DNA of 41,203 nt from a virus. The stretch is from IMG/VR virus record IMGVR_UViG_3300035698_009173; one strand, written 5' to 3'. This document shows, one piece after another, positions 7,776-34,610 of this stretch (its first letter is position 1; each line of letters opens with the position of its first letter). Made by a program: the position numbers and the translations under genes. Below the pieces are notes generated by a model that was not told the DNA's origin, made no database searches, and worked only from the letters and a program-made list of their open reading frames with translations.

Positions 7776-7801
7776 TTGTGCGCGGTGTTTTTTTTGTTAA
7801 T

Positions 7802-8372: not shown

Positions 8373-8424
8373 ATATTTGTCAAGGTTTTCTCAAATGTTA
8401 TACTAGGGACAAGGAGGAATCATT

Positions 8425-8622
8425 ATGGCGCATCGGTGCAAGAAAGGTGGGCTTGCCAAACGTTTTTACAAGACAGGCGAGATTGGCCCCGGTGGATTGA
8501 CTTGTCCATGCTGCGCGGACACAAAGAAGATCGGGAAAACGAAGAATAAGGCCCTTGGCCGTAGGGTCAAAAGAATCAATCGACGTGCTTGGAAAGCTGA
8601 GGCTGAGAGGGAGGTAGCCTAG
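8425..8622 (+). CDS. small basic Cys-rich protein (65 aa)
   Basis: ORF with RBS AAGGAGG; CPCC and Lys/Arg-rich. Confidence 0.45.
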   Translation: MAHRCKKGGLAKRFYKTGEIGPGGLTCPCCADTKKIGKTKNKALGRRVKRINRRAWKAEAEREVA

Positions 8623-8631
8623 CTTTTTAAT

Positions 8632-8678
8632 GCTTCCCTTACAAATCAATTTAACAATGATCCCGCCCCTTGTCAAGC
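8632..8678. repeat. dispersed conserved intergenic element, copy 3
   Basis: CTTCCCTTACAAATCAATTTAACAATGA then TTGTCAAGC. Confidence 0.8.
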
Positions 8679-19698: not shown

Positions 19699-20025
19699 AT
19701 GAACGAGTACAGCCTTAATAAAGGTATTTTATTAAAGGGACTAAGAAAAGCATTATTCAACGCTGCATCAAGTGTTGTTCCCGTCGGAGTAATCAATGAA
19801 TTAGCAGAGTACGTAATCGACAACATAGAAGAAGAATTTTTAGACTATGATCTTAATTTCTATATACCACAATCTGTTGAGGCAACTTGGGACACAAGAG
19901 AAGATGCGTACGTAAGCAAAATTACAAAATTAGAAGAAGAAATTAAAAATCTTAAAAAAATGGTACTGCAGAAAACCTCCCCGCACCCCCCGTGCTCCCC
20001 AAAAAAAAATAAGAAATCTCGTTGA
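19699..20025 (+). CDS. hypothetical protein (~108 aa)
   Basis: ATG after ACAGGAGGAATAAG RBS (track ORF from 19654). Confidence 0.4.
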   Translation: MNEYSLNKGILLKGLRKALFNAASSVVPVGVINELAEYVIDNIEEEFLDYDLNFYIPQSVEATWDTREDAYVSKITKLEEEIKNLKKMVLQKTSPHPPCSPKKNKKSR

Positions 20026-20074
20026 CAACATAGCGTTCGATTATTATACTGCGCCTGCACGATAACTAACAGAG

Positions 20075-20521
20075 GTGACAATGAACAATCTTGGAATTGA
20101 TGTACAGGCATGGATTTGGGTAGTAGAGGCGGCGCTGATAACAGGACTCAGCGTATGGATTACCTACGATATCCTACGATACTGGAATAGGATGGGGAAG
20201 TTTGAAGATTCTGTTATGTGGAAAACAACACAAACAATCATAACAGTAGGTATCAAAGGCATCGTTTTAGTCCTATTAATCTTTGCACTGTTTGTTTTCT
20301 TTGGTCAAGGCAAAGCTCCTAATGGATTGCCCGCATCTGAGGACAGTCATCGCAAGATGGTTAAGGCACGCCCTGACCCCACACCAGAATCCGCTATCCG
20401 CGAGGAGGCTAAAGCTGCACGAGATCCTTATTTGAATGCTGTCGATAACGATGCAAGTGCTGCACGAACTGAAGCAGACGCATACCTTAAAAAAGCTCTT
20501 GAAGGAAGCAAAACAAAATGA
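20075..20521 (+). CDS. membrane protein (2-3 TM) upstream of SPFH gene
   Basis: RBS CAGAGGTGACA; hydrophobic segments; 4-nt overlap with next gene, so coupled. Confidence 0.5.
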   Translation: MTMNNLGIDVQAWIWVVEAALITGLSVWITYDILRYWNRMGKFEDSVMWKTTQTIITVGIKGIVLVLLIFALFVFFGQGKAPNGLPASEDSHRKMVKARPDPTPESAIREEAKAARDPYLNAVDNDASAARTEADAYLKKALEGSKTK

Positions 20522-21390
20522 AGAAACCAACTCTATTTTTTATCGCAGTACTGGCGTTCCTCTCACTCGGGTGTAACATGCGCGTCCCACCAGGGTATGT
20601 GGGCATGGTATTGACGCCCAACGGCTTCCAGGGAGACGTGCTACAGCCTGGACGGCACGCCTGCTGGGGTCGTGATGAAATGGTCTTGATTCAAATGAAG
20701 GAAGAGACCATGAAAGAGGCCATGAGTATCTTATGCAAAGATGATTTGAATTTCAAATTTCATCTGAACGTGCGTACGCGTTTGCGTATCACGAATTCTG
20801 AAACGATGAAAGTTTTGCTGGAACGTAAAGGCGCGGACTTAGTGTCTAGTGCGGATGGACGCATTCTTCAATTCAACGTCCTGTACAACACCTATATTAG
20901 TCCAGTTGCTCGCGCAGTAGCTCGTGCTGCGGTTAGTAAATACGAAACCACACAAGTACGTGACCACCGTGAAGAAATTGAGAAATTTGTTTTGACAGAG
21001 ATTATTAACGCCGTTAAAGGTACACCTTTGGAAGTAGTTACTGTCACGACTTCTAATTTCGATTATCCCGACGTTATTACCAAAGCCGTCGAGAAAAAGC
21101 GTACTCGTGAGATTCAACTTCAAGAAGAAAAAGCAAAGCAGGCAATGGAATTGCTTCGCGCAGATAATCGATTGAAGATTGCTGAGAAGATGAAGATTGT
21201 TCGTGCTGCAGAAGCACAAGCCGATGCCGTGTATATTAAAATTCTTGGATCTTCTTTGGATAAGAATTACTTGGACTGGAAGCGTATTGAGCGCGATGTG
21301 AAGCTCTACGAACGTGTGGGTCCTGGTGATAAGGTAATCGTCTCCGGGGCTGCTCTGCCGATAGTGGATACACGCGGCGCTACGAAGTAG
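20518..21390 (+). CDS. SPFH/band-7 (stomatin/prohibitin/HflKC-like) lipoprotein
   Basis: lipoprotein signal with lipobox LSLGC; SPFH-like core followed by coiled-coil KRTREIQLQEEKAKQAMELLRADNRLKIAEKMKIVRAAEAQ. Confidence 0.65.
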   Translation: MKKPTLFFIAVLAFLSLGCNMRVPPGYVGMVLTPNGFQGDVLQPGRHACWGRDEMVLIQMKEETMKEAMSILCKDDLNFKFHLNVRTRLRITNSETMKVLLERKGADLVSSADGRILQFNVLYNTYISPVARAVARAAVSKYETTQVRDHREEIEKFVLTEIINAVKGTPLEVVTVTTSNFDYPDVITKAVEKKRTREIQLQEEKAKQAMELLRADNRLKIAEKMKIVRAAEAQADAVYIKILGSSLDKNYLDWKRIERDVKLYERVGPGDKVIVSGAALPIVDTRGATK

Positions 21391-21460
21391 AGTCTGAAAG
21401 GGGGTGTACCGTGGCTGAGAAAAGAAATAAAAAATTCGTATTACAGCTTGTGAAAATCTT

Positions 21461-22087
21461 TTGACCAATTATGCGGATGCGCACAACCAGACAAGCGATC
21501 ATATAGATGAAATACAAGACACTGTAGATAAGTTATATGACCGTATGGCTGTTGTCGAACAAAGCATAGCGAGTACACAGCACGGTACACCCACTATTCC
21601 TGAAAAAGAATTTGCATTAGATGGATCTATTGTGAGCGTTATTCCAACTGTTGAAGAAACTAAATATCAAAAAATTCTAGAAGAGTGTGTCCGACTACTT
21701 CGTGGCAACTCAAGAGATAGTCTTCCATTAGAGGAAGTCCCGGAAACTATTTCAGCATTGATCACAAAAGCTGATATAGCGTACGCGAGCGGTAAACTGA
21801 CTGTAGAGGACACACACACCTACAGGATAACTAAACATACTACGGAAGGAATTAGCGTCATTAATGGGCTTACTACAAGACAGGTAACAAAAATAAAAAA
21901 ATTATTTAATGAAATTGCACACGATAGTCGTGTACAAGGGCAAGAAGTTGAGCAAGCAAACATACGTAGATTAATAAAAAAAGAGTATGATCTCGTAAGT
22001 GGTGGGATCCATAATGCTGAATGTATCATAGACCGTCTTTACGAAAAAATTACAGGTAACAGTATAGAGGACAAAAATGATTCCTGA
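21461..22087 (+). CDS. hypothetical protein (start uncertain)
   Basis: track ORF begins with TTG; first in-frame ATG at 21545; no clear RBS. Confidence 0.4.
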   Translation: MTNYADAHNQTSDHIDEIQDTVDKLYDRMAVVEQSIASTQHGTPTIPEKEFALDGSIVSVIPTVEETKYQKILEECVRLLRGNSRDSLPLEEVPETISALITKADIAYASGKLTVEDTHTYRITKHTTEGISVINGLTTRQVTKIKKLFNEIAHDSRVQGQEVEQANIRRLIKKEYDLVSGGIHNAECIIDRLYEKITGNSIEDKNDS

Positions 22088-22550
22088 CCCCGAAAAAAGA
22101 ATCAAAGATGATATAAAACAAGCAAACAAAAATATAAAATATAAACAAAGTGAGGTAGAAAAACTTAAAGATCATAAATTTTGGTTAATAAAAAAATTAA
22201 AAGAATCTAAAAAACAAGCACTTATTAGGCGATTTGAAGAATTGGTATTAGAACGTATATGGGAAGTGCGCAGTATTCATCAACAGTACCCATTATACAA
22301 TGCACAAAGTCCAGGAGAATGTTGTATATCTTTGGCAACACGCGGGAACAAAGAATTATTTTATTTGATGGACAGATTATCCGAGGTCAGGGGAGAAAAA
22401 ACTAAGTACGGGGTACGCAAACAAAACAATTTTATTATTCTTAATTTTGAAAATGTGGGGCAGTTAGCTAGATTATCCGCTGACGGGCTTAGAGTACACA
22501 CTAAAGACTTCATAACCTCTCCATTCTTTTTCATTCTTCATATGCGTTGA
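22077..22550 (+). CDS. hypothetical coiled-coil protein (157 aa)
   Basis: ORF overlapping upstream stop (coupled). Confidence 0.45.
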   Translation: MIPDPEKRIKDDIKQANKNIKYKQSEVEKLKDHKFWLIKKLKESKKQALIRRFEELVLERIWEVRSIHQQYPLYNAQSPGECCISLATRGNKELFYLMDRLSEVRGEKTKYGVRKQNNFIILNFENVGQLARLSADGLRVHTKDFITSPFFFILHMR

Positions 22551-22615
22551 GCACTATTCTGCCCGTAACATCGGACTTTTGTACAGAATAATGCTCAAAT
22601 AATTATTGAGGACTT

Positions 22616-23302
22616 ATGATAGCTCCAAGTAAATATCCTAGGACACCCCACCTACCCTGGTCGCCGGGGGGTACACGAGATGACAGACGAATTAAGGATG
22701 CGTCTATTTTCGTTAACCGGGAGCTTGTTATCACTGAAAAATTAGATGGGTCGAATGTGTGCCTAACTTCTACAGAGGTGTTTGCGCGGTCTCATGGTAA
22801 GCCTGCTACGCATCCTTCCTTCGATTTGCTTAAAGGAATACACGCAGCTATTCGACATAAGATAGACCCGTGCATGCCACTTTTTGGTGAGTACTGTTAT
22901 GCAGTCCACAGTATCGTCTACGATGCACTTCCTTCTTACTTTTTCTTATTCGGAGTAGTGTTTGAGGGGGCGTCTAAAGAATCAAGAAAATACCATTGTC
23001 CACAATGGGATCCCTGGGAACAGGTACAAGAGTTAAGTAAAATCCTAAATGTATTATGTGTCCCAGAGCTTTTTACTGGAAAAGTTAATTCATTAGAAGA
23101 ATTAGAAAAATTAACACAAAAATTAGCAAACCAGCCTTCAGAATACGGGGGTAAACGCGAAGGGTTAGTTGTACGGATGGCTGGTGCTTTTAGTGGGGAT
23201 AACTTTGATAAACGCGTTGCAAAGTGGGTTCGTAAGGATCATGTGCAGACTGATAAACATTGGGCGAATTGTAAAATTACAAAACAAAAATTAAGGAGTT
23301 AA
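22616..23302 (+). CDS. ATP-dependent RNA ligase-like nucleotidyltransferase (KxDG motif)
   Basis: N-terminal KYPRTPHL and nucleotidyltransferase motif I EKLDGSN typical of RNA ligase families. Confidence 0.55.
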   Translation: MIAPSKYPRTPHLPWSPGGTRDDRRIKDASIFVNRELVITEKLDGSNVCLTSTEVFARSHGKPATHPSFDLLKGIHAAIRHKIDPCMPLFGEYCYAVHSIVYDALPSYFFLFGVVFEGASKESRKYHCPQWDPWEQVQELSKILNVLCVPELFTGKVNSLEELEKLTQKLANQPSEYGGKREGLVVRMAGAFSGDNFDKRVAKWVRKDHVQTDKHWANCKITKQKLRS

Positions 23303-23304
23303 CC

Positions 23305-23616
23305 ATGGATGATTCGTACAAAGAACTCGAAAATATTCTTAGGTTTTTTGATGAAGCATCGGAATCTATTGGGGTGGACTACCCAAATATGTATATCGTT
23401 GGTGGGTCATATAGTAATAACTTAGTTTTAGGGGACCGCCCATTATGGGAATCCGATGAAGACGTAAGAGAATTTGACGATGAAAAAAACGAGTACAAAA
23501 CATCTATCGTGGAAGCTACCATCACAGACTTAGAAGACTACGTTGCGTACATCACAAAATTAGTAGAAGCGGTGAAAAAAATAGTCAAAGCGGAAGCGCT
23601 GAGCAAAGTATTCTAA
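23305..23616 (+). CDS. hypothetical acidic protein (103 aa)
   Basis: ORF, RBS TTAAGGAG. Confidence 0.45.
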   Translation: MDDSYKELENILRFFDEASESIGVDYPNMYIVGGSYSNNLVLGDRPLWESDEDVREFDDEKNEYKTSIVEATITDLEDYVAYITKLVEAVKKIVKAEALSKVF

Positions 23617-23708
23617 GAAAATGAAAAATTATTAGTTGACAAACTGAGATGGAATCGTACAATACATGTCGGAAGGTAACACAAACCAAAACCCGGAGGA
23701 AAAAAAGT

Positions 23709-24629
23709 ATGCGTAACACAACTCAAGACATGGAGGAACGTATGAACAAAGTATTCGCTTTACTAAGCCCTATTGACAAAGAATGTATCAACAGAGTCGG
23801 CCCGCATGAATGGTGTGGATGGTGCGAAATCACCCCACCCATAGCACAAAAAATGCTTGAGCTTCACACAAATAACCGTAAAATATCTAACGCGCATGTC
23901 AATCGCATCGCAACGGATATCAAAGAGAACAACTGGGTCCGTATGCCCATGCCGCTTATCTTCACAGACACCGGCACGGGCGTGGATGGGCAACATCGTT
24001 TGCGTGCCATCGTAGAGGCCAACATCGCGGTCAATTCGTTGGTGTACATTGGTGCCGATGAAAAAGAATGCATGTGGTTAGACGCTCTAGGAAAGCGCCG
24101 CATGGTACATGACCAGCTTGGAATGCACTCTGAAGATCCTAATGTGCGTGAAAACATTACCGGCGCACACTTCACTATTTCTTTCCTCTTGATGCGTATC
24201 AGCAAAGAGAGCAGAGAGAACGCCTTATTCGGCGGCAGCAGATTCTCGATGCTTGAAGGTGCGGCATTTACTGAAAAGCATTTTGAAGCAATCGATTTTG
24301 CAATTTCGTTTAAAAAGAATGTTGCTAAGGGGATCAATGCACCAGCATTCGCTCCCCTGGCTCGCGCATATTACTCCGTACCCCGCGACGTTCTTTCCAG
24401 ATTTGGAGAGGTGCTAGCAACCGGTTTGAGCACATCCCCAAGCGAACACGGGATTGTGAAGCTTCGCAACCGTCTCAAGGACAAGGTGCCCATCAGGGTT
24501 AACGGGGTTACCCGGCAGCCCAACAGGGAAGACACTTATAAGCTCGTCCAATCAATCTTGCGGAAGTACGTGGATGGGCGCAGTATTGACCGCGTAAAGG
24601 CGGTTAACATCGACTTGTTCCCCTGGTAA
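23709..24629 (+). CDS. ParB-like nuclease (ParB/Srx fold) domain protein
   Basis: DGQHRLRA motif of ParB-like nuclease domain; ATG 23709 after CCGGAGGAAAAAAAG RBS; promoter TTGACAA 23634-23640. Confidence 0.55.
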   Translation: MRNTTQDMEERMNKVFALLSPIDKECINRVGPHEWCGWCEITPPIAQKMLELHTNNRKISNAHVNRIATDIKENNWVRMPMPLIFTDTGTGVDGQHRLRAIVEANIAVNSLVYIGADEKECMWLDALGKRRMVHDQLGMHSEDPNVRENITGAHFTISFLLMRISKESRENALFGGSRFSMLEGAAFTEKHFEAIDFAISFKKNVAKGINAPAFAPLARAYYSVPRDVLSRFGEVLATGLSTSPSEHGIVKLRNRLKDKVPIRVNGVTRQPNREDTYKLVQSILRKYVDGRSIDRVKAVNIDLFPW

Positions 24630-24700
24630 CACTAGCACGAAGTATAATAAGCACACGGCCATGAAAATGATCGTGTGCTTTTTACTTTAAGGATATTAGA

Positions 24701-25435
24701 ATGAAAGTCTCTATTCTTATTCTCACATACAATAGGTTGGATATTGTTAAAAAATATCTACCGAAAATTGTACAACGAAATACTGAACCCGATTCAGAGA
24801 TCCTAATATGGGACAACGGTTCAACAGACGGCACAGCAGAATGGGTGTACAACTATGCCCTGCAGCACCCACCGGGGAAAATCATTTTTACTCGCGGGGC
24901 AGAGAACCATGGAATGGAGGCTATCAATTTCTTAGCACAAATGGCTAAAGGAGAATATGTCCTTAAGCTAGATTGCGATATGCACGTACCAGAAGGTTTT
25001 GTACAGGATTTAATCAAAGCTTATGAAATGGTTGATGATAATCTCATTTTGTTTATGGGATATGATATGTCCTGGCTAGATGAAAATACATTCGCAACAC
25101 GCAAGGGATTTACTCCCTTCGACCCACCGAACGGAAGAATTGAAAAAGTGCATGACGGTGTTGTTTTAATTAGCCACTACCCAAGTAAGTTCATGGTCAA
25201 CGGGGCCTGCAGGCTCTCTACGCGCATTGATTTCCTTAAACATGGTATGCACCCAAAGGGCGCGAAGTATGGCATAGACTACACTGTAAACGTCCAGGCA
25301 GAGAAAGCTGGATTCTATGTGGCCTTTTACAACAATAAGACTCCAGTTATCCATTGTAATGAAAAAGATACCACAGAGTACCGAGCATTCAAAGACGCTG
25401 AGTTAGAAAAGTACTCTGGGCCGAAAGACGTATAG
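24701..25435 (+). CDS. family 2 glycosyltransferase
   Basis: ILILTYNRLDIV..DNGSTDGT GT-A/GT2 signature. Confidence 0.65.
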   Translation: MKVSILILTYNRLDIVKKYLPKIVQRNTEPDSEILIWDNGSTDGTAEWVYNYALQHPPGKIIFTRGAENHGMEAINFLAQMAKGEYVLKLDCDMHVPEGFVQDLIKAYEMVDDNLILFMGYDMSWLDENTFATRKGFTPFDPPNGRIEKVHDGVVLISHYPSKFMVNGACRLSTRIDFLKHGMHPKGAKYGIDYTVNVQAEKAGFYVAFYNNKTPVIHCNEKDTTEYRAFKDAELEKYSGPKDV

Positions 25436-25447
25436 GGAGATACCAAA

Positions 25448-26074
25448 ATGTCTATAAATAAATTAAGATATGTGTCAGTAGGGTTTACTCGTATTGAGGA
25501 TAAAAAAAGAGATGAATTTATTATTAATCCAAATAGGATAAAAATTTTAGGCGCGTTCCCCGATGAAGAACACGCAAACTATACTAGTAGTTATTATGCT
25601 GGGAAAGAAAACAGAGAAGAAGCTTGGGACAGTGCCGTCACAATAGACTTGCCACAAAGAAGTATCAAAGCGTGGTACGAGCCTATGCACTGGACGGACA
25701 AAACTAAAGGCGGATACATTATTAAAATGGAGCATACTATATGTTTTTACAGTAAAGGAAAAGCATGGATCACTCTTGTGACTTCCGCTGAGGAATCTTA
25801 TACTGCAGGATACAAAGATTCTTTTGGAATTGCGCACCAACTTGAATTATCTTCGGGAGTTTTACATAAATGCCCTACATGTGGTATTTGGTCCTCTTTG
25901 CATGACCTAGATTTTAGATGTGAAGATGATACTGGAGAATTAATTTGTGCTCAGTGTGAGCATAAATACTCCGCAGAAGAAAAAGAATGGATGAATAAAG
26001 AAAATGTTTTTAAACGCCATAAAAAATTATTCACTGAATATGTCAGAGACGGAAACGATCAACCGTCTACTTAA
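25448..26074 (+). CDS. hypothetical protein with C-terminal CxxC..CxxC zinc ribbon
   Basis: ORF, KCPTCG..CAQCEHKY. Confidence 0.5.
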   Translation: MSINKLRYVSVGFTRIEDKKRDEFIINPNRIKILGAFPDEEHANYTSSYYAGKENREEAWDSAVTIDLPQRSIKAWYEPMHWTDKTKGGYIIKMEHTICFYSKGKAWITLVTSAEESYTAGYKDSFGIAHQLELSSGVLHKCPTCGIWSSLHDLDFRCEDDTGELICAQCEHKYSAEEKEWMNKENVFKRHKKLFTEYVRDGNDQPST

Positions 26075-26180
26075 CCGAATTATAAACAAAAGTTAATCTT
26101 TTCTTGTTTCTTATGTTAATGTTAACGTAATTGAATGGTGCCTTCGAGCACACCACGCAAACGAAACGAGAGGTAACACT

Positions 26181-26738
26181 ATGATTTCACTGAAGAAATT
26201 TTTCAAAGACTCACTTCCAGGCACTATCCTAAACATCGGCACAAGCTTTGCTAAGCTGTATAGCACACAAAGCAATGAAATTGGCCGTATAACAAAAGAA
26301 TTAATACACCTGCAGGAAAGAGTTAACATCTCAGAAGCTATCATGCGTAGTCCACAAAAAGAAGAGACTCCTGAAGCAGCAATAAATCGTTTATTAGAAG
26401 CCGTAAGTGGCGTCACAGATGATTTGAGTACTGCTCGCAGGTTGGATTCTCGTATTGAAGATTCACAAGAAAAAATAAGGGTGCTCAGTAACCTAGTTAG
26501 TCGCACTGCAAAACGGGGAGAAGTTTTTAAATTTAATGGCGATAACTGGGTGAACCTTACTGAAAAAGATTTAACAAAAATGAAAAACGAGATGGTAAAA
26601 CAAATTAATGGAGCAGTAGAAAATATGACAAGATCACTCAATGACCGCGTACGAGAAACAAAAATAATTAATAAACGTCTCGATATATTAGAAAACCCCA
26701 AGACCCCAAAAAAGAGATCACGTGCTAAATCTCACTAA
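26181..26738 (+). CDS. hypothetical coiled-coil protein (185 aa)
   Basis: ORF, RBS GAGAGGTAACA. Confidence 0.5.
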   Translation: MISLKKFFKDSLPGTILNIGTSFAKLYSTQSNEIGRITKELIHLQERVNISEAIMRSPQKEETPEAAINRLLEAVSGVTDDLSTARRLDSRIEDSQEKIRVLSNLVSRTAKRGEVFKFNGDNWVNLTEKDLTKMKNEMVKQINGAVENMTRSLNDRVRETKIINKRLDILENPKTPKKRSRAKSH

Positions 26739-27348
26739 GGGAGTTTCTCCATGTCTTTACCATGTGTTTGAGGAAATATTAATAAAGAATTGTGAAATAA
26801 CATTAGATAAAGAAGAAGACGATGATGATACTCTTACGCGACAGTTTCAACATAGCTTAGAATATATTCATGTCTACTACAAGAAAGAAAACGTAGGAAA
26901 ATTTGGAAAAACTTCTCTGAAGGTTACCGCCCGTAATAACCCGCAGAATGATGCCTGCTTAGGCCCTTTATTTGGTAAGGAAGAAGAAATAAAGAAATCC
27001 TATGAAGACTTCCAGTGCTTTGTAGACTTGTGTGTTAGATTCTTAATACGTTCCGTAGCAAGCGCAGAACTGCATATAGCTAAGGGGTACGTACATGATT
27101 TTACCTCAATATTTTTTAATAAGAATAGCTATCTAAAAGATCTTATCCCCCCGTACATTTCCAACACCCCTGCACACAGTGTCGCCTTACCGAATGATGC
27201 CGGTCCAGTGTTATACGGTATGGTCGCGATAAAAGAGTTAGCGGGTAAACAACTTCAAAGACCGCAAGGGGGGCAGTACATCGTTATCCCTATGCCCCCA
27301 CTGTCTGACATTTATGAAGCATATGTGACAGCTTCTATTAAAAAGTAG
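26722..27348 (+). CDS. hypothetical protein (start uncertain, GTG)
   Basis: track ORF; overlaps upstream gene end; RBS ambiguous. Confidence 0.35.
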   Translation: MLNLTKGVSPCLYHVFEEILIKNCEITLDKEEDDDDTLTRQFQHSLEYIHVYYKKENVGKFGKTSLKVTARNNPQNDACLGPLFGKEEEIKKSYEDFQCFVDLCVRFLIRSVASAELHIAKGYVHDFTSIFFNKNSYLKDLIPPYISNTPAHSVALPNDAGPVLYGMVAIKELAGKQLQRPQGGQYIVIPMPPLSDIYEAYVTASIKK

Positions 27349-27383
27349 TTGACACCGCACGCCTTCGCGGTTATACAAGGTGT

Positions 27384-28637
27384 ATGGGTAAGGCCACGAA
27401 AAAAAGACAAAACGATTCTGAAGCTGAAGAAAACAAAATGCTTCAAAAGCTTACTGATTCTAATGATCATTCTAAAGGCCGAACAAAGAAGAAGTTCAAT
27501 AAACGTAAGCGCATACAACGAGATTCGATACACTCTGTGCAAACTTGCATGCGTAGATACGGGCTTAATGCGTATAAACAAATTCATGCATGGGTACCGC
27601 ACAGGTACTCATTAGACAAAGCCCAAACTGATCTTATTAAATATGCGTACGTAGCATATGCTATCCCTCACGTTTTCAGAAGTTTAATTGAATTAGGGGT
27701 AGCCTGGCCAAGCACCACGGATAATGATTTAGGGTATTGTACTGCCATGCAAGTTTGTCGTGGAGGATCCTTTTATAAATTGCACAGCACTGATCGTGTG
27801 AAAGCTCTTTGTAAATATGTGATGTCTAGGAAAGAAACACATACATTTCTTACCAACGGCCCTTACAAGTTTACAAATAACAACGCATTCTATATTGCTT
27901 TTCAAAAAAATATGGTATGGTCCAAAGCGACTTGTGCAGGCTTGAAAACAGGAGTTCCTGAAGTACTGGCTAACCATGCCTTCTATCTCCCATTTTCTTC
28001 TGAGGTGTTTGACTCTTTTGTGTTATTTCTTAAACGACATGAGAATAATTATGCTCCTCAAGATATTGGGGACATCTTAGATTTTTTAGAAGATTCTTGG
28101 GCTAATCTTGAATACCCATCTTTTGCTGGACGTTCCTGGACACGTATTGTTCATGCAGCTAATCATTGGCACGCTGACGTTGCGAATGTTCGTATGGTAC
28201 AAGCGCAGCAACGGAGAGATATTTGGAGTGAACGTACGCCACCCGTATCAAAAGAACCGTTTAAGAAACAGAACAAAATTGAAGAACGGTGGCTTGCGTA
28301 CAGAGATGCCGATAAGCTTAAGTATATTATTTGTCGTTTACACAATTACGATGCTCTCCAAGCTGAAGGGAATCGTATGCACCATTGTGTTGGTGCGTAC
28401 TACACGAAATGCCGTAATGGACATAGTGAAGTTTATTCGGTAGCTAGGCAAGAAAAGATTCGAGGTGGTTGGACATACAGCGATATAAAACATGCAGCAA
28501 CGTTGGAAATTTCTTGTCCGCAGAATAGCCTCGTACAAGCACGCGGTGTGTGTAATAAACCAATGGTTGCTAGTACTAAGAAAGTAATTAAAGAATGGGC
28601 ACGAAAGAATAATGTTGACGTAGCACTTTATGTTTAA
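27384..28637 (+). CDS. hypothetical protein (417 aa), weak resemblance to PcfJ-like family (MHHCVGAYY motif)
   Basis: ORF with promoter TTGACA 27348-27353; motif EGNRMHHCVGAYY recalls PcfJ-like proteins (from memory only). Confidence 0.45.
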   Translation: MGKATKKRQNDSEAEENKMLQKLTDSNDHSKGRTKKKFNKRKRIQRDSIHSVQTCMRRYGLNAYKQIHAWVPHRYSLDKAQTDLIKYAYVAYAIPHVFRSLIELGVAWPSTTDNDLGYCTAMQVCRGGSFYKLHSTDRVKALCKYVMSRKETHTFLTNGPYKFTNNNAFYIAFQKNMVWSKATCAGLKTGVPEVLANHAFYLPFSSEVFDSFVLFLKRHENNYAPQDIGDILDFLEDSWANLEYPSFAGRSWTRIVHAANHWHADVANVRMVQAQQRRDIWSERTPPVSKEPFKKQNKIEERWLAYRDADKLKYIICRLHNYDALQAEGNRMHHCVGAYYTKCRNGHSEVYSVARQEKIRGGWTYSDIKHAATLEISCPQNSLVQARGVCNKPMVASTKKVIKEWARKNNVDVALYV

Positions 28638-28707
28638 TTCTAAAATAACTAATTGAAAATGTAAACTACTTTGTATAAAAAATATAACGAGGTTAAAGGA
28701 GATAGGG

Positions 28708-29847
28708 ATGAACAACACATTTACAATTAAAGGATCTGCTACACAAATTTCAGTATACGCACACGTTGTTGAAGAAAGTGCGCTGCAGCAATTGCACCAC
28801 GTCGCCAACTGTCCCGCGTTCTCGGATTCACAGATTGTAATTATGCCAGACGTGCACGCGGGTAAGGGCGCAGTTATTGGGTTCACCGCGACGCTTGGAG
28901 AACTTGTGTGCCCCAACGTCGTAGGTGTGGATATCGGCTGCGGAGTAATCGCCGCCAACCTCGGACCTTCTTGCCCAGACTTCCCTAAACTGGACAAGTT
29001 TATTCGTACAAATATTCCAAGTGGGCACTCTGTTCGTCAAAGCAATGTAATTGGGAATTCTAAAGAAGAAGAATTGATGGAACAGGTTCATGAAGTTGGG
29101 AGAAATATTCAAACAGCAGAATCACTTAGCTATTACGTTAATTCTATAGGAACACTTGGTGGAGGAAATCATTTTATTGAGGTTGGAAAAGGTGAACGTA
29201 ATGATTACTGGATCATTATCCACAGTGGTAGTCGGAAATTTGGGAACGACATAGGAAATTATTATTGGAAGCATGCAAAAAAACTTGAAAATTATTCTAA
29301 TGGAAAAAAAAAACTAGCATGGTTAGGCGGATCTGATCGTGACGATTATCTTTTTGCAGCGAATATTGCCCAACAATACGCAAAGTTAAATAGAAAAGCA
29401 ATGATGGATAGTCTTCTTCATTACTTAGGATTTGATTTTGCGTACACTGAACGAGTTGAGTCTGTTCACAACTACATTGATTTTACAGATACTGTTTCAA
29501 TGATTCGGAAAGGAGCAATCTCTGCCAAAAAGGGAGAGCGTGTAATCATCCCCATGAACATGGCTTACGGGTGCGTTCTCGGTACTGGATTAGGTAAGGC
29601 TCTTTGGAATAACTCCGCTCCACACGGCGCAGGCAGAGCAATGAGCAGATCTGTAGCGAAGAAGAGTATTACATTAGATGAATTTAAAGCAGTGATGACG
29701 GATGTATGGAGCAGTTGTGTGCAACAATCTACAATAGATGAAGCGCCGCAGGCATATAAACAAGTAGACGATGTATTGGACTATTTGTCTGAGACAGTTA
29801 CCCTGGACACAAAAATCAAATCTGTTTATAACTTTAAAAGCACCTAA
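28708..29847 (+). CDS. rtcB: RtcB-family RNA 3'-phosphate ligase
   Basis: VDIGCGV metal site, GGNHFIEVG, and APHGAGRAMSR (His-guanylylation region) motifs; RBS AAAGGAGATAGGG. Confidence 0.6.
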   Translation: MNNTFTIKGSATQISVYAHVVEESALQQLHHVANCPAFSDSQIVIMPDVHAGKGAVIGFTATLGELVCPNVVGVDIGCGVIAANLGPSCPDFPKLDKFIRTNIPSGHSVRQSNVIGNSKEEELMEQVHEVGRNIQTAESLSYYVNSIGTLGGGNHFIEVGKGERNDYWIIIHSGSRKFGNDIGNYYWKHAKKLENYSNGKKKLAWLGGSDRDDYLFAANIAQQYAKLNRKAMMDSLLHYLGFDFAYTERVESVHNYIDFTDTVSMIRKGAISAKKGERVIIPMNMAYGCVLGTGLGKALWNNSAPHGAGRAMSRSVAKKSITLDEFKAVMTDVWSSCVQQSTIDEAPQAYKQVDDVLDYLSETVTLDTKIKSVYNFKST

Positions 29848-29856
29848 GAGGAAACT

Positions 29857-30492
29857 ATGTACAAATACAAAAAGTTTATTAAACCAATTAGTATTATTAT
29901 GTACACATCTTTCGCGATAATTGCGTTAGCTTGTGGAGGACTTGCGCTTTTCCTGCACGAAAATTGGGTAGCGGGCGAAATAGTTACTTTAAGTTCTGCT
30001 ATCCTTGTCACATTAAGCATTTGTGGACTAATGCTTTATAAAGAATACAAAAGTTTGCCAAAATGGATCACAGCACAGGGGGTCGGCGTCTGGGAATCCA
30101 TCCCATGGTTTGATGCGACTGGACGAATGGTACTAAATAAGTCTATTGATCTTTTTATAAATATCGTTTCAACTGAAAAACAAATACCAAAGTATCAATT
30201 GTTACTAACGTTACAAAAATTAAACGTAGAGTGGACTACAAAATCGATTAGTTTAGTCGGTGTCGGATGGACAGTACAAGATAAAGCTGGCGTGCAACAA
30301 GGAAACAATATTATGGTTCAGTGGCTTGGAGATCTATACAAATCCGCATTTGTTCATGAGTTAATTCATTTTATTCGAACACAGCACTGCCACCTTCCTA
30401 CAGATTACGCACACAAAGATTATGATTGGTGGTATTTAGAGAATAAAATAAATAACTACATAAGAAATACGATGTATATCGGGGAATGCTAA
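29857..30492 (+). CDS. membrane protein with HExxH zinc-metallopeptidase-like motif
   Basis: three N-terminal TM segments; FVHELIHFIRTQH. Confidence 0.5.
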   Translation: MYKYKKFIKPISIIMYTSFAIIALACGGLALFLHENWVAGEIVTLSSAILVTLSICGLMLYKEYKSLPKWITAQGVGVWESIPWFDATGRMVLNKSIDLFINIVSTEKQIPKYQLLLTLQKLNVEWTTKSISLVGVGWTVQDKAGVQQGNNIMVQWLGDLYKSAFVHELIHFIRTQHCHLPTDYAHKDYDWWYLENKINNYIRNTMYIGEC

Positions 30493-30719
30493 TCTGTTGT
30501 AAGTATTTCTTCAATAATTGTCAAATCTTCTTGAACTGCCTCATCTTCTTCTGCAATCATTCCCATAATTAGGCTAGCAAATGTTTTTCTTAGAGAAGAC
30601 ATCTTATCTTTCAACAATTCATTTTCTTTTATAATTTTATGAATGGTTGTTTCAGAAGATTCTTCTAACATAACGATGTTCACAAGAACACCCCCGTATA
30701 TTGTGTTGGTTGGCTTCAT
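30489..30719 (-). CDS. hypothetical acidic protein (~76 aa)
   Basis: internal Met of track ORF 30489..30821 chosen so that it abuts (ATGA overlap) the upstream paralog gene. Confidence 0.35.
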   Translation of the reverse strand: MKPTNTIYGGVLVNIVMLEESSETTIHKIIKENELLKDKMSSLRKTFASLIMGMIAEEDEAVQEDLTIIEEILTTD

Positions 30720-30907
30720 AACTCCCACTGGAAAACTATAATGAATCCCAATATTGCGAAAATCAATATCAAAATACTTACAACGATTAGAACGGGGGAG
30801 AATACCCACCACCAGGACCAATCAAGTACATTAAAGAGCTTTAAAAGTACAAATATAAGTTGAACAATTCCGGGAATAACAATACCTGCATCTATAAGTT
30901 TACTCAT
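30716..30907 (-). CDS. small membrane protein with DWSWWWV motif (paralog of 16319-16543)
   Basis: LKLFNVLDWSWWWVFSP versus LKLVGTIDWSWWWVLSP. Confidence 0.5.
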   Translation of the reverse strand: MSKLIDAGIVIPGIVQLIFVLLKLFNVLDWSWWWVFSPVLIVVSILILIFAILGFIIVFQWEL

Positions 30908-30957
30908 TTTATCTCAACCTTAACTTTTAAATCACCTACCCATAAGATCGTATGGGA

Positions 30958-31140
30958 CTAACAGCTACCACAAGTAGCGCACATTGCCGTCATCGACGCT
31001 ACAAGTAGAATACTAACAAGTACAATTTGTAGTTTGTACTTTCCCCAAACAGTTTGTACAAAATTAAAAATCTTTTTAGTTTGCGCATTCATGACTACCT
31101 CCACATCCTGGGTCTTCTGGGATACCGACTCCACAGCCAT
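30958..31140 (-). CDS. small membrane protein (start uncertain)
   Basis: track ORF; overlaps next ORF in different frame. Confidence 0.3.
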   Translation of the reverse strand: MAVESVSQKTQDVEVVMNAQTKKIFNFVQTVWGKYKLQIVLVSILLVASMTAMCATCGSC

Positions 31141-31294
31141 ATTTAGTTTCTATTGTAGTTCTTGGTTTAAAATATTCATATGGCATATTTTCTCCAAGAT
31201 ACTCTATGCGTAACGTTCCGCATTTTACACACCATTTATACGCGACACCTGACACATACGCTGTGGGCATGGATACCCAATCATGGTTATTCAT
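31076..31294 (-). CDS. small zinc-ribbon protein (72 aa)
   Basis: CVKCG..CGGSHEC. Confidence 0.4.
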   Translation of the reverse strand: MNNHDWVSMPTAYVSGVAYKWCVKCGTLRIEYLGENMPYEYFKPRTTIETKYGCGVGIPEDPGCGGSHECAN

Positions 31295-31478
31295 TTTTAT
31301 TCTTGATCTCCTTGTATAGGGTTAACATTAAATTTGTTTTTTGAATTAATTGATAACCTTGTTTAGAAAGTTCACTAGTTCTACTTCTTTTTGCAATAGT
31401 AAGCTCTAACTCTAACTGATCACGCAAATCATAACAAAGTTCATACAATGGTATTAAGATTTCGTTGTTATCTGGCAT
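31287..31478 (-). CDS. hypothetical small protein (63 aa)
   Basis: ORF in operon context. Confidence 0.4.
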   Translation of the reverse strand: MPDNNEILIPLYELCYDLRDQLELELTIAKRSRTSELSKQGYQLIQKTNLMLTLYKEIKNKNE

Positions 31479-32454
31479 TATTCTCTAACACCGTTGCAGA
31501 AGATGTCCGTATAAACCATGCTGACTCTTGCAATTCATCGATTGTATGTGCACCGAGCATGGACATGCCTTGCCGAAGTGCAGCAAGCAAACCAATTGTA
31601 ACGTCCTCAGCACTCCCTTGGTTAGGAATGACCGTCTGTATACCTTCCGGTACTAATTCTGGCCGCATAGCGCCTGTAAATGCTTCCTGCGCCTCTTTTG
31701 ATGCCAGTCCTCGATACATTTTTTGCCCATTTAGCCCATACTGTCCGTAGGCTTCTGTCGTACCTCCATACATGCGGCCCAGCATGACAAATGATGCGCC
31801 ACCTGCTAGTGCTTTTACAATATCGCCGGGATGTTTTATCCCTCCATCAGCAATTATGTCTATACCTACCGAAGCACATTCGCATACGGCAGATAATTGG
31901 GGTCTTCCACATCCTGTTATTAATCTTGTACTACAAATCGATCCACTACCTATTCCAATCTTAACTACGTTAGCTCCTGCTGATTGTAATCGGCGTGTGG
32001 CAGGCTTTGTTACGACATTCCCAACGACTAATACCTGGGTATCCCTAATTTTAGACCGAATATACTCGACTTCTGATAATACAGCGCAAGTATCTGCGTG
32101 TGCTAGGTCTACAAAAATAAAATCAGGAGATAAGTCTAAAACAGCATCCCTACGAACGTTATCGCGGATACCTAATGTAGCTGCAGAATATTTACATGAC
32201 TCTTTTACTTCTTTAATTTCATTTATTTGTGATTCAATACTACAAAATCTATGTATCGGAACAATTACTTTGTACTTATCGACCGCTTTAGCGACAGCAG
32301 CTATCCCTGTCGTCTCCATATTCGCAACAATGATGGGTGCAATCGTTTTTTCTAATATAGTGATGTCTGTTACTGGTTCTAACCTGCTTTCTAAACTTGA
32401 ATGTTGTGGAAGTAACAATACATCATCGTATGTAACTTCTTCTTTTCCGATCAT
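31468..32454 (-). CDS. IMP dehydrogenase/GMP reductase family oxidoreductase (GMP-reductase-like size)
   Basis: catalytic loop GIGSGSICSTR and IIADGGIKHPGDIVKALAGGA (TIM-barrel IMPDH/GuaC signature), 328 aa with no CBS insertion. Confidence 0.7.
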   Translation of the reverse strand: MIGKEEVTYDDVLLLPQHSSLESRLEPVTDITILEKTIAPIIVANMETTGIAAVAKAVDKYKVIVPIHRFCSIESQINEIKEVKESCKYSAATLGIRDNVRRDAVLDLSPDFIFVDLAHADTCAVLSEVEYIRSKIRDTQVLVVGNVVTKPATRRLQSAGANVVKIGIGSGSICSTRLITGCGRPQLSAVCECASVGIDIIADGGIKHPGDIVKALAGGASFVMLGRMYGGTTEAYGQYGLNGQKMYRGLASKEAQEAFTGAMRPELVPEGIQTVIPNQGSAEDVTIGLLAALRQGMSMLGAHTIDELQESAWFIRTSSATVLENNAR

Positions 32455-34034
32455 AAGATCTCGGAAGAATTAACTGGCGTTTGAAATTCGATTGGGTAGT
32501 TATGGAACATAGGGGTGAAGCGAGTTATCTTACCCTGTGTATCTAATGTCAATGTTACGATGATTCCACCAATTGTTGGATAAAAATCTCCGTAAGTAGC
32601 GTAGATATTCATTGTTTCGAAGCAAGGTACCAGGCAACTATGCACGTTCTGTGGCATAAAATACCCATTAGTATGTTTGTGTCCGCAAAATAGGATGTCA
32701 GGAGAGTTATTTTTTGATATTGTACGCTGCAAATGTTTCTCAAGAGACCAAGAACGTGCATGTGCAGAAGATTTAATGTGCGATAGCTCAATATCAATTC
32801 CATAAGGGTCTAAAATAAGCCTGGCGGCAATATTACCAATACATGTAGTATCAGGTCTACGAATCTTGATCAACTCAGAAGGATCCGTTCCATTTGATTT
32901 CATGAAATCTACGTCATGATTACCTAAAATGTATACGTACTGCAAATCATCATGCTTTGGTAGGACATCTGCACAAATTTGACACTGATCTTTGCACGCC
33001 CATGCTTCTAATTCAAGTGTTTGACCTCGGTAAACGTTATTACCAGCTAACATATCACCCGCATGGAGAATTGTGCGTACGTTAAATTCATCATACGCCA
33101 TCTCTACAAAGTCTACTATTTCATCTTTCATACAATGTGCAGATCCAAAGTGTGTATCAGAGATTACTGCGAATCTAATAGTATTATTAGATAGTTTTGG
33201 TATATTAATTTTGGGTCTTTCTCCAATTATTACTGAACTATCGATTACATTTGTATCTATTTTTACTTTATCATTAGAAATATTGAGTCTATACCCTTCT
33301 GCTTTAGCTCTAACTAGGGCAGACTCTAATCTATAGGGGGAACAATCGAATGTATTGCATAAAAGTGTTAATGTTAATGGTATTCTCTTTCCTTTTGCGT
33401 TTCTTTTTTGTCCTTTTGAGTATTTTAATACATATTCAATTATTTTTTCTTCTAAATTCATGCCTTCGTCAACTTGCGTAAGGTGTTGAGTACTTTTACG
33501 TGACTTTGGGTCATTTTTTACTTTATTATCTTTTACTTTTTTTGTTTTTGCACGTTTTTCCATCATTTTTACTTTCTTTTGCGCAGCTTTATACTCTTTA
33601 ATCACATTCTTAGCACCTTTTCCTACTAAATTCTTAACAGACTCACTCAAACAGTTGCGTCTTAGTGCTCCGCGAACCATTTCATAGGTAATAACTACAT
33701 TCATGGCATCAGTTGCATTAGTTAGGGCTTCTTTAATCGTTTGTGCCTGTAAAAAACAATCAAGCATAGTTAATACTGTAGATTCATTCCAAAAAATAGA
33801 ATTATTATTACGATTTACTTTTGAGAGTAATACTGAAGAGCTTTTTATAGCATTATCACGAAGAGTCATACGAACTGCATTGGCTGTAGTTGTGTGATTA
33901 AATTCTCTCGAAATTTCATCCACAGCATCTGTAATACGTTCATACTTTTTCAAAATATTGCAAAGAATTTCAACACGTTTAGGTGTCCAAAACCTACTGT
34001 ACGATCCTGATCCACGTAATCTCTCTTTAGACAA
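32451..34034 (-). CDS. calcineurin-like metallophosphoesterase with Lys-rich N-terminal region
   Basis: VISDTHFG, GDMLAGN, ILGNHD motifs in C-terminal half. Confidence 0.65.
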   Translation of the reverse strand: MSKERLRGSGSYSRFWTPKRVEILCNILKKYERITDAVDEISREFNHTTTANAVRMTLRDNAIKSSSVLLSKVNRNNNSIFWNESTVLTMLDCFLQAQTIKEALTNATDAMNVVITYEMVRGALRRNCLSESVKNLVGKGAKNVIKEYKAAQKKVKMMEKRAKTKKVKDNKVKNDPKSRKSTQHLTQVDEGMNLEEKIIEYVLKYSKGQKRNAKGKRIPLTLTLLCNTFDCSPYRLESALVRAKAEGYRLNISNDKVKIDTNVIDSSVIIGERPKINIPKLSNNTIRFAVISDTHFGSAHCMKDEIVDFVEMAYDEFNVRTILHAGDMLAGNNVYRGQTLELEAWACKDQCQICADVLPKHDDLQYVYILGNHDVDFMKSNGTDPSELIKIRRPDTTCIGNIAARLILDPYGIDIELSHIKSSAHARSWSLEKHLQRTISKNNSPDILFCGHKHTNGYFMPQNVHSCLVPCFETMNIYATYGDFYPTIGGIIVTLTLDTQGKITRFTPMFHNYPIEFQTPVNSSEIL

Positions 34035-34196
34035 AATAAACTCCTTTTTTAGTAATTAAGAACGTAAACATACGCACATTATACTTTATGCATATTTTAT
34101 TTAGTAAAGTGTTGTTTGTGCACGTCGTTTGCATAGGTCCTTGGGTCACTGAGGTATAATACCAAAACAAAATAACTTATAAGGAGAGTTCCGCAC

Positions 34197-34610
34197 ATGA
34201 ATCAAGAAAAAATTAATAAAATTTTAGAAAAGAGTACACGGAAAGCGCTATGTATGCCCCTTATCTATGTATCGGGGGCATTTCGGGCGGAAACTAGTTG
34301 GGGTATTGAACAAAATATCCGTAAAGCAGAAAATTATGCTCTAGATTTATGGAAATTAGGTGCAGCAGCCCTGTGTCCACACACAAATACACGTTTTTAC
34401 CAGGGGGAACTACCCGATGAGGCCTGGTTAGCGGGGGATTTGGTCATGTTAAAGGGTTGTGATGCAATATTCATGCTTCCTGAGTGGGAAAAGTCAGAAG
34501 GAGCATGTATAGAACTTGAATTTGCGAAAATATTGAATAAAAAAGTACTTTATACACTAAATCTAGTTGAACAGTACGTAATTAACCACATTAATAAAAA
34601 TAATAGTTGA
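34197..34610 (+). CDS. DUF4406/nucleoside 2-deoxyribosyltransferase-like protein (tentative)
   Basis: LIYVSGAF..SEGACIELEFAK pattern; RBS AAGGAGAG. Confidence 0.4.
   Translation: MNQEKINKILEKSTRKALCMPLIYVSGAFRAETSWGIEQNIRKAENYALDLWKLGAAALCPHTNTRFYQGELPDEAWLAGDLVMLKGCDAIFMLPEWEKSEGACIELEFAKILNKKVLYTLNLVEQYVINHINKNNS

Follow-up and report, generated by a model that had tools for sequence, protein, structure and literature searches.

The 41,203-nt viral sequence IMGVR_UViG_3300035698_009173 from IMG/VR (hereafter the window, meaning the whole 41-kb stretch that was analysed) encodes two RNA-sealing enzymes, a minimal ATP-dependent RNA ligase and an RtcB-type ligase, together with eight tRNA genes and a calcineurin-like metallophosphoesterase. 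We judge it probable that the two ligases and the tRNAs act to sustain translation, and that the phosphoesterase is a separate, DP1-like module. A preliminary description had grouped the three enzymes into a single RNA-repair toolkit, with the phosphoesterase as its healing arm; ORF (open reading frame) listing and profile searches placed all three ORFs at the same positions and on the same strands and recovered each of the Pfam families concerned (RtcB, RNA_ligase and Metallophos), but the healing role was not supported by closer comparison of the phosphoesterase clades. What we observed are the domains and their catalytic residues, the order of the genes, the promoter motifs and the family neighbourhoods; tRNA as substrate, the timing and the physiological role of each enzyme are what we infer. 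The genes in question are as follows.

22616-23302 (+): ATP-dependent RNA ligase, 228 aa; Pfam RNA_ligase PF09414, E 2.6e-24; PHROG RNA ligase, E 1e-37
28708-29847 (+): RtcB, 379 aa; Pfam RtcB PF01139, E 3.1e-62; PHROG 1075 'tRNA splicing ligase', E 4.5e-121
32451-34034 (-): metallophosphoesterase, 527 aa; Metallophos PF00149, E 3.7e-9, residues 286-455 only
37832-38097 (+): perfect sigma-70 promoter (37832-37859), then tRNA-Phe(GAA), tRNA-Trp(CCA) and tRNA-Gln(UUG)
40701-41170 (+): sigma-70 promoter (40701-40728), then tRNA-His(GUG), tRNA-Leu(CAA), an odd tRNA, tRNA-Ser(GCU) and tRNA-Ser(UGA)

The two RNA ligases and the tRNA genes

RtcB would join 3'-phosphate or 2',3'-cyclic-phosphate ends directly to 5'-OH via His306-GMP, with no healing needed, and the 228-aa Rnl2-like ligase would seal 3'-OH/5'-phosphate breaks using ATP and Lys42. 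Family membership and context suggest that the two would act as independent sealers with complementary end chemistry. The region would be transcribed from strong host-type sigma-70 promoters, and the ligases, with eight tRNAs under their own promoters, would most likely keep translation running despite cleavage of tRNAs or other RNAs by host nucleases.

The small ligase displays motifs I (K42LDGSN), III (FGE92YC), IV (E182GLVVR) and V (K203WVRK207), as expected of the KxDG type to which it had been assigned, and residues K42, D44, G45, N47, E92, E182, G183 and K203 are invariant across 29 homologues. Its AlphaFold2 (AF2) model has a pLDDT of 90.7, and the top 30 Foldseek matches in the PDB are RNA ligases throughout (NgrRnl, Trl1-LIG, Rnl3, T4 Rnl2 and REL1 among them); DNA ligases enter the list only at rank 31 (a protein deposited as a 'putative ATP-dependent DNA ligase') and rank 34 (that of African swine fever virus, ASFV), their E-values ~100-fold weaker than that of the best match, which places the fold nearer to RNA than to DNA ligases. 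The protein consists of the nucleotidyltransferase domain alone, with TM-scores normalised to the target of 0.28-0.49 at partial coverage of each target. None of the appended domains of related ligases is present in the 228 residues, namely the Rnl2 C-terminal domain, the Rnl1 tRNA-binding C-domain, the Rnl3 dimerisation and C-domains and the Rnl5 N-terminal OB domain. Because these family-specific domains are missing, the protein is, by sequence and model, best called a minimal Rnl2-like ligase outside the full-length Rnl1, Rnl2, Rnl3 and Rnl5 families. As with T4 Rnl1 and its partner Pnkp, the window ligase is a phage-encoded member of the covalent nucleotidyltransferase superfamily and its presumed purpose is to restore nuclease-cut tRNA; unlike T4 Rnl1, it does not match Pfam RNA_lig_T4_1, finds the Rnl1 fold at rank 43, has no C-terminal tRNA-specificity domain and has no kinase-phosphatase that could be found in the window.

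More than 3279 homologues of this ligase were recovered, including proteins of Sorangium and other Polyangiaceae; no solved structure was found among its sequence relatives, and a literature search returned no characterised member of the family. Homologues occur in 28 GenBank phage records, nearly all from jumbo or mega phages, such as XacN1, Atu_ph07, SCTP-2, CcrSC and several metagenomic phages of 485-735 kb. We collected 80 viral loci with ligase homologues, clustered the neighbours within 6 kb, ran Pfam on one representative per cluster and re-counted by tblastn, and found the following genes near the ligase.

T4 Rnl1-type ligase: 14/80 loci (tblastn 13)
Lambda-phosphatase-type Metallophos, 240 aa: 11/80 (tblastn 11)
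Pnkp (AAA_33 kinase + HAD_PNKP): 9/80 (tblastn 11)
RtcB: 7/80 (tblastn 8)
CCA-adding enzyme: 6/80 (tblastn 6)

RtcB lies within 6 kb of a small-ligase homologue at 8 of the 80 viral loci and at 1 of 82 control loci (Fisher p = 0.017, over loci that are not fully independent), a closeness that exceeds chance. Since homologues adjoin Rnl1-type ligases, Pnkp, RtcB, CCA-adding enzymes and the lambda-type phosphatase, an RNA-repair role for the small ligase is well supported by context, with tRNA as its predicted substrate.

Ten jumbo-phage contigs (L022, L027, L028, L029, L031, L032, L036, L040, L055 and L066, at ~100-9000 in each) share a conserved cassette. Its first part runs from Pnkp through a small membrane protein, a T4 Rnl1-type ligase and a 240-aa unknown protein to the Rnl2-like minimal ligase, and is followed by an ~85-aa Cys/His-rich protein, the lambda-phosphatase-type Metallophos, an ~116-aa helical protein and paralogous ~160-aa proteins. 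The minimal 228-aa ligase family, lying in this conserved succession of Pnkp, Rnl1, ligase and lambda-type phosphatase, is a good candidate for biochemistry. A different setting was seen in locus L011 (8001-13794), where a small-ligase homologue of 53% identity is followed by a histidine phosphatase (His_Phos_1), with a Tpt1/KptA RNA 2'-phosphotransferase and a release-factor-like (PCRF/RF-1) gene nearby; this gene content suggests a 2'-phosphate-type repair route in the L011 element.

The RtcB homologue covers positions 1-423 of the 426 in the Pfam model (211.6 bits against a cutoff of 27) and has residues D75 and C78 (DIGCG), H155 (GGGNHF), H172 (HSGSR), H254 (VHNY) and H306 (PHGAGR), in motifs that align with the RtcB proteins of T. 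thermophilus, human and P. horikoshii in PDB alignments. By reference to PhoRtcB, we take D75, C78, H155, H172 and H254 to be metal ligands and H306 to be the His-GMP nucleophile. The product is thus a predicted 3'-phosphate/2',3'-cyclic-phosphate RNA ligase with all catalytic residues, and the difference in chemistry between the two ligases that the preliminary description had drawn stands. Compared with the GTP-dependent RtcB of E. coli and P. horikoshii, it shares the full-length Pfam match, the Asp/Cys/His ligands and PHGAGR; it differs in being shorter (379 aa), in having no RtcA, RtcR, Archease or PrfH nearby, and in its flanks, a PcfJ-like protein and an HExxH membrane protein. None of the NCBIfam RtcB equivalog models is matched above its curated cutoff. 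Homologues were counted in 680 GenBank phage records, identity to any from a cultured phage being at most ~42%; no close relative of this RtcB was found in IMG/VR.

ARAGORN detected eight tRNAs in two clusters (37871-38097 and 40736-41170), of which seven were confirmed at the Rfam gathering score and the eighth had a single, sub-threshold match, to the tRNA-Sec model; the earlier count of at least seven tRNA or tRNA-like genes is therefore borne out. The tRNA clusters had been placed next to the enzymes, but the proximity is loose, with 3.8 kb from the first tRNA to the phosphoesterase, 8 kb to RtcB and 14.5 kb to the ATP-dependent ligase. The odd tRNA (40921-40997, +; Rfam tRNA, 40.5 bits) has the anticodon arm CUUAGG-UUUAUUGA-CCUAAG, which can be read either as an 8-nt anticodon loop UUUAUUGA or as a 7-bp stem closed by a 6-nt loop, and ARAGORN could assign it no anticodon. 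This tRNA did not turn up in any of the fetched loci, and could be a quadruplet-decoding or otherwise unusual tRNA, a nuclease-resistant variant or a decoy.

We looked for healing partners among the ORFs of the window with Pfam, PHROG and NCBIfam, and found no Pnk kinase, HAD_PNKP, HD, 2H, RlaP or Archease. A motif screen of the window (P-loop kinase, HAD DxDxT, 2H HxT/S, HD) likewise gave no convincing P-loop kinase: P-loop-like strings in a 745-aa ORF were rejected for want of family support, and the sole candidate with a double HxT/S, a 99-aa ORF at 13277-13576, was rejected as a chance match, being too short and also lacking family support. The window yielded no 5'-OH polynucleotide kinase and so does not establish heal-and-seal repair of the T4 kind. 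Since an ATP-dependent ligase needs 3'-OH/5'-P ends, possible substrates of the small ligase are the breaks that metal-dependent nucleases leave; alternatively, the ends may be healed by enzymes whose genes lie beyond the window. The likeness to T4 tRNA repair proposed in the preliminary description thus holds in part: sealing and replacement tRNAs fit published descriptions of large phages (PMC7824862) and the neighbourhoods of the ligase family, but no Pnk kinase was found in the window. Heavy selective pressure from tRNA-targeting defences, also proposed there, is something we can only infer.

RtcB, Rnl1/Rnl2 (ATP-grasp) ligases, end-healing enzymes and tRNA arrays have been described together in jumbo phages such as BcepSauron, BcepSaruman and XacN1 (Iyer et al. 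2021, PMC7824862), and it was proposed there that different ligases handle different nuclease products. The window resembles these repair sets in having RtcB, an ATP-dependent RNA ligase and multiple tRNAs in an accessory region, and departs from them in that no Pnkp, HD-Pnk, 2H, HAD or RlaP was found in its 41 kb. Because such jumbo phages are already described, the combination of RtcB, ATP-dependent ligase and tRNAs is a known phage type; what is new is an unsampled lineage, with neither a cultured nor an IMG/VR relative, and an incomplete healing complement in the region seen.

The phosphoesterase as a DP1-like module

The phosphoesterase matches Metallophos with 37.7 bits against a cutoff of 21.5, and its 285 N-terminal residues have no family match in Pfam. 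The calcineurin-like assignment was upheld by all five metal-binding motifs (D293/H295, D327, N372/H373/D374, H419 and H452/H454), which are invariant across 20 homologues. Alignment and model place HTH (helix-turn-helix)-like helical repeats at ~16-70 and ~82-136, a Lys-rich helix and a winged helix at ~216-260 ahead of the catalytic domain; across the family there are one to three HTH-like repeats, and the winged helix has weak MarR-like profile matches. These N-terminal HTH and winged-helix domains suggest DNA binding.

Sequence-profile and fold searches alike led to the small subunit of archaeal DNA polymerase D (PolD DP1) and then to Mre11/SbcD, and not to the end-healing phosphatase clade. 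NCBIfam DP1 models match the protein at E 3.3e-13 (49.4 bits against a cutoff of 445), and in profile searches of the family against the PDB, PolD small subunits alone were significant (E 4e-11 to 9e-7), the remaining matches, to MarR-type regulators and MJ0936, lying at E >=0.1. With Foldseek, the top 10 matches were all DP1 (best E 1e-10), followed by Mre11, MJ0936, GpdQ and SbcD; viral structural neighbours in BFVD are annotated 'DNA polymerase II small subunit' or metallophosphatase, and the PHROG label is 'DNA repair exonuclease'. Like DP1, an Mre11-like 3'-5' proofreading exonuclease that is the best match to its catalytic domain, the phosphoesterase has a helical/winged-helix region before the phosphodiesterase domain; unlike DP1, to which it is only 15-17% identical, it has in the model no OB-fold-sized segment between winged helix and catalytic domain, and no DP2-like ORF is found in the window. 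It would accordingly not count as a member of the DP1/B-subunit family, the resemblance appearing confined to the phosphodiesterase domain and its helical lead-in.

The Metallophos protein that recurs beside the small ligase in other viruses is of another kind. Its motifs are GDIHGC, GDLIDRGP and GNHE, as against SDTHFGS, HAGD, GNHD and GHKH in the phosphoesterase, and its profile matches diadenosine tetraphosphatase, 4J6O, ApaH and lambda phosphatase in the PDB, none of which is matched by the phosphoesterase family; the hhalign probability between the two families is 6.6%. We take 4J6O, named 'Metallophosphoesterase' by its depositors, to be the CthPnkp phosphatase domain. The phosphoesterase shares the binuclear metallophosphoesterase superfamily with CthPnkp, lambda phosphatase and ApaH, but by its differing motifs and its failure to match these PDB profiles it is placed outside their clade (GDxHG...GDxxDRG...GNHE). 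Taken together, sequence and model point most likely to a catalytically intact (by its motifs) DP1/Mre11-like nuclease or phosphodiesterase with N-terminal domains of DNA-binding type. A metallophosphoesterase near RNA ligases is thus not automatically an end-healing enzyme; its clade has to be considered.

A word-indexed search returned 28 homologues, and a full profile search returned 3406 representative clusters at E <=1e-3, 1160 of them at E <=1e-30, so that the DP1-like phage phosphoesterases form a large unstudied family. The 50,697 GenBank phage records gave one match, a haloarchaeal virus at 25% identity, and on this account kinship with T5 A1 or another cultured-phage protein was rejected.

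Genomic context also sets the enzyme apart. It lies on the minus strand between two genes with links to nucleotide metabolism.

31468-32454 (-): GMP reductase/IMPDH-family protein, 328 aa; Pfam IMPDH, E 1.8e-77
34197-34610 (+): DUF4406 protein; Pfam DUF4406, E 4.5e-11; divergent from the phosphoesterase and kept in loci L008 and L009

The stop codon of the phosphoesterase overlaps the start codon of the GMP reductase gene (ATGA), an arrangement that predicts translational coupling of the two. DUF4406 is probably related to the nucleoside 2-deoxyribosyltransferase family, and two neighbours of the phosphoesterase family carry the PHROG name 'nucleoside 2-deoxyribosyltransferase'; the gene content of this sub-region supports a nucleotide-metabolism theme. 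Locus L008, with a phosphoesterase of 59% identity, keeps the order PARP, DUF4406/phosphoesterase, GMP reductase and then RtcB, with ~3 kb between phosphoesterase and RtcB. The phosphoesterase is found at 0 of the 80 small-ligase loci, and 59 of the 61 viral loci where its own family occurs, representing 36 lineages at 70% identity, are without any of the RNA-repair genes searched for. Neighbours across these 61 loci are heterogeneous and belong mainly to DNA and nucleotide metabolism (NrdD, methyltransferases, nucleoside deoxyribosyltransferase, helicases, DNA ligase, portal proteins). Relatives at 37-38% identity sit between a portal gene with amidase and a head protease gene, beside a PD-(D/E)XK exonuclease, with no RNA-repair gene within 10 kb. 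Given the DP1-type affinities, the opposite strand, the coupling to GMP reductase and the absence from the ligase loci, the phosphoesterase is probably a bystander and not part of the RNA-repair set. Its most likely role would be nucleic-acid breakdown, nucleotide salvage or another DNA transaction, tied in the window lineage to purine and nucleotide metabolism.

Several homologues have settings of their own. Loci L004, L006, L007, L010, L096 and L097 (~7500-13100) carry the DP1-like phosphoesterase and the PD-(D/E)XK exonuclease inside a head module that runs from portal/Amidase_2 to the head maturation protease; at L010 the portal's position is taken by a 1045-aa gene with faint intein and LAGLIDADG matches. 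Dense tRNA regions surround other homologues, with 42 tRNAs in 12.9 kb at L104 (IMGVR_UViG_3300035182_002586, 529 kb) and 18 at L106; the 529-kb contig of L104 also carries the small ligase, ~320 kb away (L038).

Competing readings of the region

Several observations weigh against the reading that we prefer. Over the 41 kb seen, the ATP-dependent ligase has neither a kinase nor a phosphatase partner, and the neighbour statistics rest on loci without phylogenetic independence. The DP1-like phosphoesterase lies near RtcB in two lineages, that of the window with L008, and L099. At the latter locus (2155-11250 of IMGVR_UViG_3300036987_000083, 179 kb) a member of the phosphoesterase family (hhalign E 4e-52) stands inside an RNA-repair island ordered PF09414 RNA ligase, HNH, HD-Pnk (HD + AAA_33 kinase), one further gene, DP1-like phosphoesterase and, beyond other genes, a Metallophos of a third type, one gene and RtcB. 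The metallophosphoesterase fold can act on 2',3'-cyclic and 3'-phosphates, as in CthPnkp, and does not of itself reveal the substrate. Finally, the window is part of a genome, its contig being 45 kb compared with mostly >300 kb for cultured or assembled phages with the small ligase, and its assignment to a phage is based on PHROG hits, tRNA arrays and relatives.

The two lineages with the phosphoesterase near RtcB bear on the possibility that all three enzymes form one heal-and-seal toolkit, in which the phosphoesterase would strip 2',3'-cyclic and 3'-phosphates for the ATP-dependent ligase at tRNAs cut by anticodon nucleases, with RtcB acting in parallel. We regard this as unlikely. None of the five metallophosphoesterase motifs is degraded or varies within the family, some metallophosphoesterase recurs beside the small ligase at 11 of 80 loci, the window-type enzyme occurs inside the L099 island and close to RtcB in L008, and calcineurin-like phosphatases seem to fill the healing role in a few jumbo phages (PMC7824862). 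Yet the phosphatase that accompanies the ligase belongs to the clade of lambda phosphatase, ApaH and 4J6O, to which the window enzyme shows next to no profile similarity, and the window family is significant against PolD DP1 only; it is missing from the ligase loci and nearly always from the company of RNA-repair genes, lies on the opposite strand coupled to GMP reductase, and carries HTH and winged-helix domains that point to DNA. Healing for the ATP-dependent ligase would moreover be incomplete without a 5'-OH kinase, which was not found in the window. A narrower version is that some phages have recruited the DP1-like family as a third type of metallophosphoesterase for RNA end processing, beside RtcB, HD-Pnk and Rnl2-like ligases. 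It is suggested by the position in the L099 island and by the closeness to RtcB in the window, and we hold it to be improbable; if true, it would link a nuclease fold of the PolD-proofreading type to RNA repair.

The ligases might also be real sealers whose targets are not tRNAs, RtcB repairing rRNA (as RtcB2-PrfH does with 16S rRNA cut by colicin E3) or mRNA, or capping or joining DNA 3'-phosphate ends, and the small ligase acting on RNA:DNA nicks or phage transcripts, with the tRNAs serving codon supply. The nearest folds of the small ligase do include the nick sealers NgrRnl and T4 Rnl2, the tRNAs are 8 and 14.5 kb from the ligases and not adjacent, and tRNA arrays are as frequent near unrelated accessory genes (13/80 small-ligase, 6/61 phosphoesterase and 6/21 MVP (major vault protein) viral loci). 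In E. coli, 16S rRNA is a substrate of repair by RtcB (PMC9223846, PMC13166195). Against this, the classical tRNA-repair partners (CCA-adding enzyme, Rnl1 and Pnkp) recur beside the small-ligase family, and the window has no sign of rRNA repair, neither PrfH nor an RtcB of the PrfH-associated type (TIGR03073, 96.9 against a cutoff of 271.8). It is also established that the T4 counterparts, Rnl1 and Pnkp, act on tRNA-Lys, which they repair to counter PrrC. Weighing these points, we give non-tRNA targets a low probability, slightly below that of the joint toolkit. Least credible of all, in our view, is that the phosphoesterase is an anti-signalling enzyme that degrades the cyclic (oligo)nucleotides of CBASS, Thoeris or type III CRISPR, the region being a general counter-defence island. 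Functions of this kind in jumbo phages have been predicted for calcineurin-like phosphodiesterases orthologous to T5 A1 (PMC7824862), an NAD+-consuming PARP is encoded nearby, and phosphodiesterases of the MJ0936 type are among the fold matches; T5 A1 similarity is, however, not detectable, the sole GenBank phage match being the haloarchaeal virus, small-molecule phosphodiesterases match far less well than DP1 and Mre11, the HTH and winged-helix domains suit polymer binding, and in several lineages a PD-(D/E)XK exonuclease and head genes adjoin the enzyme.

If, as we prefer, two RNA-sealing enzymes and the tRNAs sustain translation apart from a DP1-like phosphoesterase, the window would be a further case of large phages countering RNA-cutting defences with ligases for both end types and spare tRNAs.

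Transcription units and other genes of the window

Twelve exact TTGACA-N16/17-TAYAMT sites were found in the window, 12/12 on the + strand, where 0.22 would be expected by chance. They lie at positions 746, 2231, 3670, 3986, 4684, 5978, 7501, 7879, 20022, 23636, 37832 and 40701, with 8/12 in the first 8 kb. A broad promoter and terminator scan gave counts at or below shuffle expectation overall, and significance is limited to this strict subset, which suggests early transcription of short units by host RNA polymerase. The units and flanking genes around the ligases are listed here.

20022-20050 (+): sigma-70-type promoter TTGACA-N17-TATACT; heads unit 20075-23616 (148-aa ORF, SPFH protein, 208-aa and 157-aa ORFs, RNA ligase, 103-aa ORF)
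23305-23616 (+): 103-aa acidic ORF beginning 2 nt past the ligase stop; no family match (Pfam, PHROG, NCBIfam)
23636-23663 (+): sigma-70-type consensus promoter; heads unit 23649-30492 (326-aa ORF, GT2, three unknown ORFs, PcfJ-like, RtcB, 211-aa HExxH membrane protein)
27384-28637 (+): PcfJ-like protein, 417 aa, directly upstream of RtcB; Pfam PcfJ, E 2.5e-12
29857-30492 (+): 211-aa ORF, 9 nt past RtcB; kept with RtcB in L002, L003 and L008
37832 (+): promoter of a unit with three tRNAs and an MVP homologue
40701 (+): promoter of a unit with five tRNAs

The ligase, RtcB and the two tRNA clusters therefore occupy four separate promoter-defined units, those of the ligase and RtcB being consecutive, and the ligase, RtcB and the phosphoesterase, the last on the opposite strand, belong to three different transcription units. 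The gaps between the three enzymes, 5.4 kb and 2.6 kb, are filled by unrelated genes (GT2, PcfJ-like, GMP reductase and others). The pairing of the PcfJ-like protein with RtcB is kept in L002, L003 and L008. The 211-aa ORF has hydrophobic N-terminal segments and a HELIH (HExxH) zincin-like motif, and no family match in Pfam, PHROG or NCBIfam. In jumbo phages the ligase gene is followed by one for a small Cys/His-rich protein; the 103-aa ORF shows no similarity to that protein and was rejected as its counterpart.

Megablast gave no GenBank phage match for 22000-34500, and the window matches a 45-kb ENA metagenome contig. PHROG and Pfam assign its other ORFs to a SNF2 helicase, a sigma factor, an ArdC-like protein, a methyltransferase, SPFH, PcfJ-like and GT2 proteins, a PARP and the MVP homologue, with no structural gene among them, a content that would suit the early or accessory part of a large, uncultivated phage genome. 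ArdC-N, sigma factor, PcfJ-like and ParB-like proteins are also shared with conjugative elements; a phage origin is nevertheless likely. The sigma-70-family factor lies at 12305-13069 (+), and an anti-restriction-like protein with ArdC-N and a zincin metallopeptidase domain at 13580-14491 (+). G+C content is ~0.47-0.49 over positions 1-14000 compared with 0.35-0.43 over the rest of the window (16000-41203).

The MVP homologue (38155-40659, +, 834 aa) matches MVP_shoulder (E 8.8e-23), Vault_3 and Vault repeats. Full-length identity to MVPs of Polyangiaceae (Myxococcota), Nannocystis, Desulfobacterales and others is 50-54%; closer still, at 58-66%, is a small clade from metagenomes. A 401-aa protein with WGR and PARP catalytic domains is encoded 1.3 kb upstream (35592-36797, +). 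MVP and PARP are two of the four components of eukaryotic vaults; no vPARP accompanied the phage MVPs reported in a 2023 preprint. Conserved adjacency of the two genes was rejected: locus L093, whose MVP is 63% identical, has no PARP within 10 kb, and L008 keeps the PARP and the tRNAs with no MVP at that position. As a more speculative extension, the MVP homologue could form a vault-like shell in an RNA-protection programme. At L093 the MVP gene lies inside an array of 25 tRNAs, and at L161 it follows 11 tRNAs. A claim of MVP-tRNA enrichment was dropped, the frequency of tRNAs within 6 kb of MVP being only modestly higher than that at the ligase and phosphoesterase loci. Loci L166, L167 and L173 (2350-3064) carry an amber-suppressor-type tRNA (CUA, ARAGORN 'Pyl') in a tRNA cluster upstream of their MVP homologues, which hints at stop-codon reassignment or suppression.

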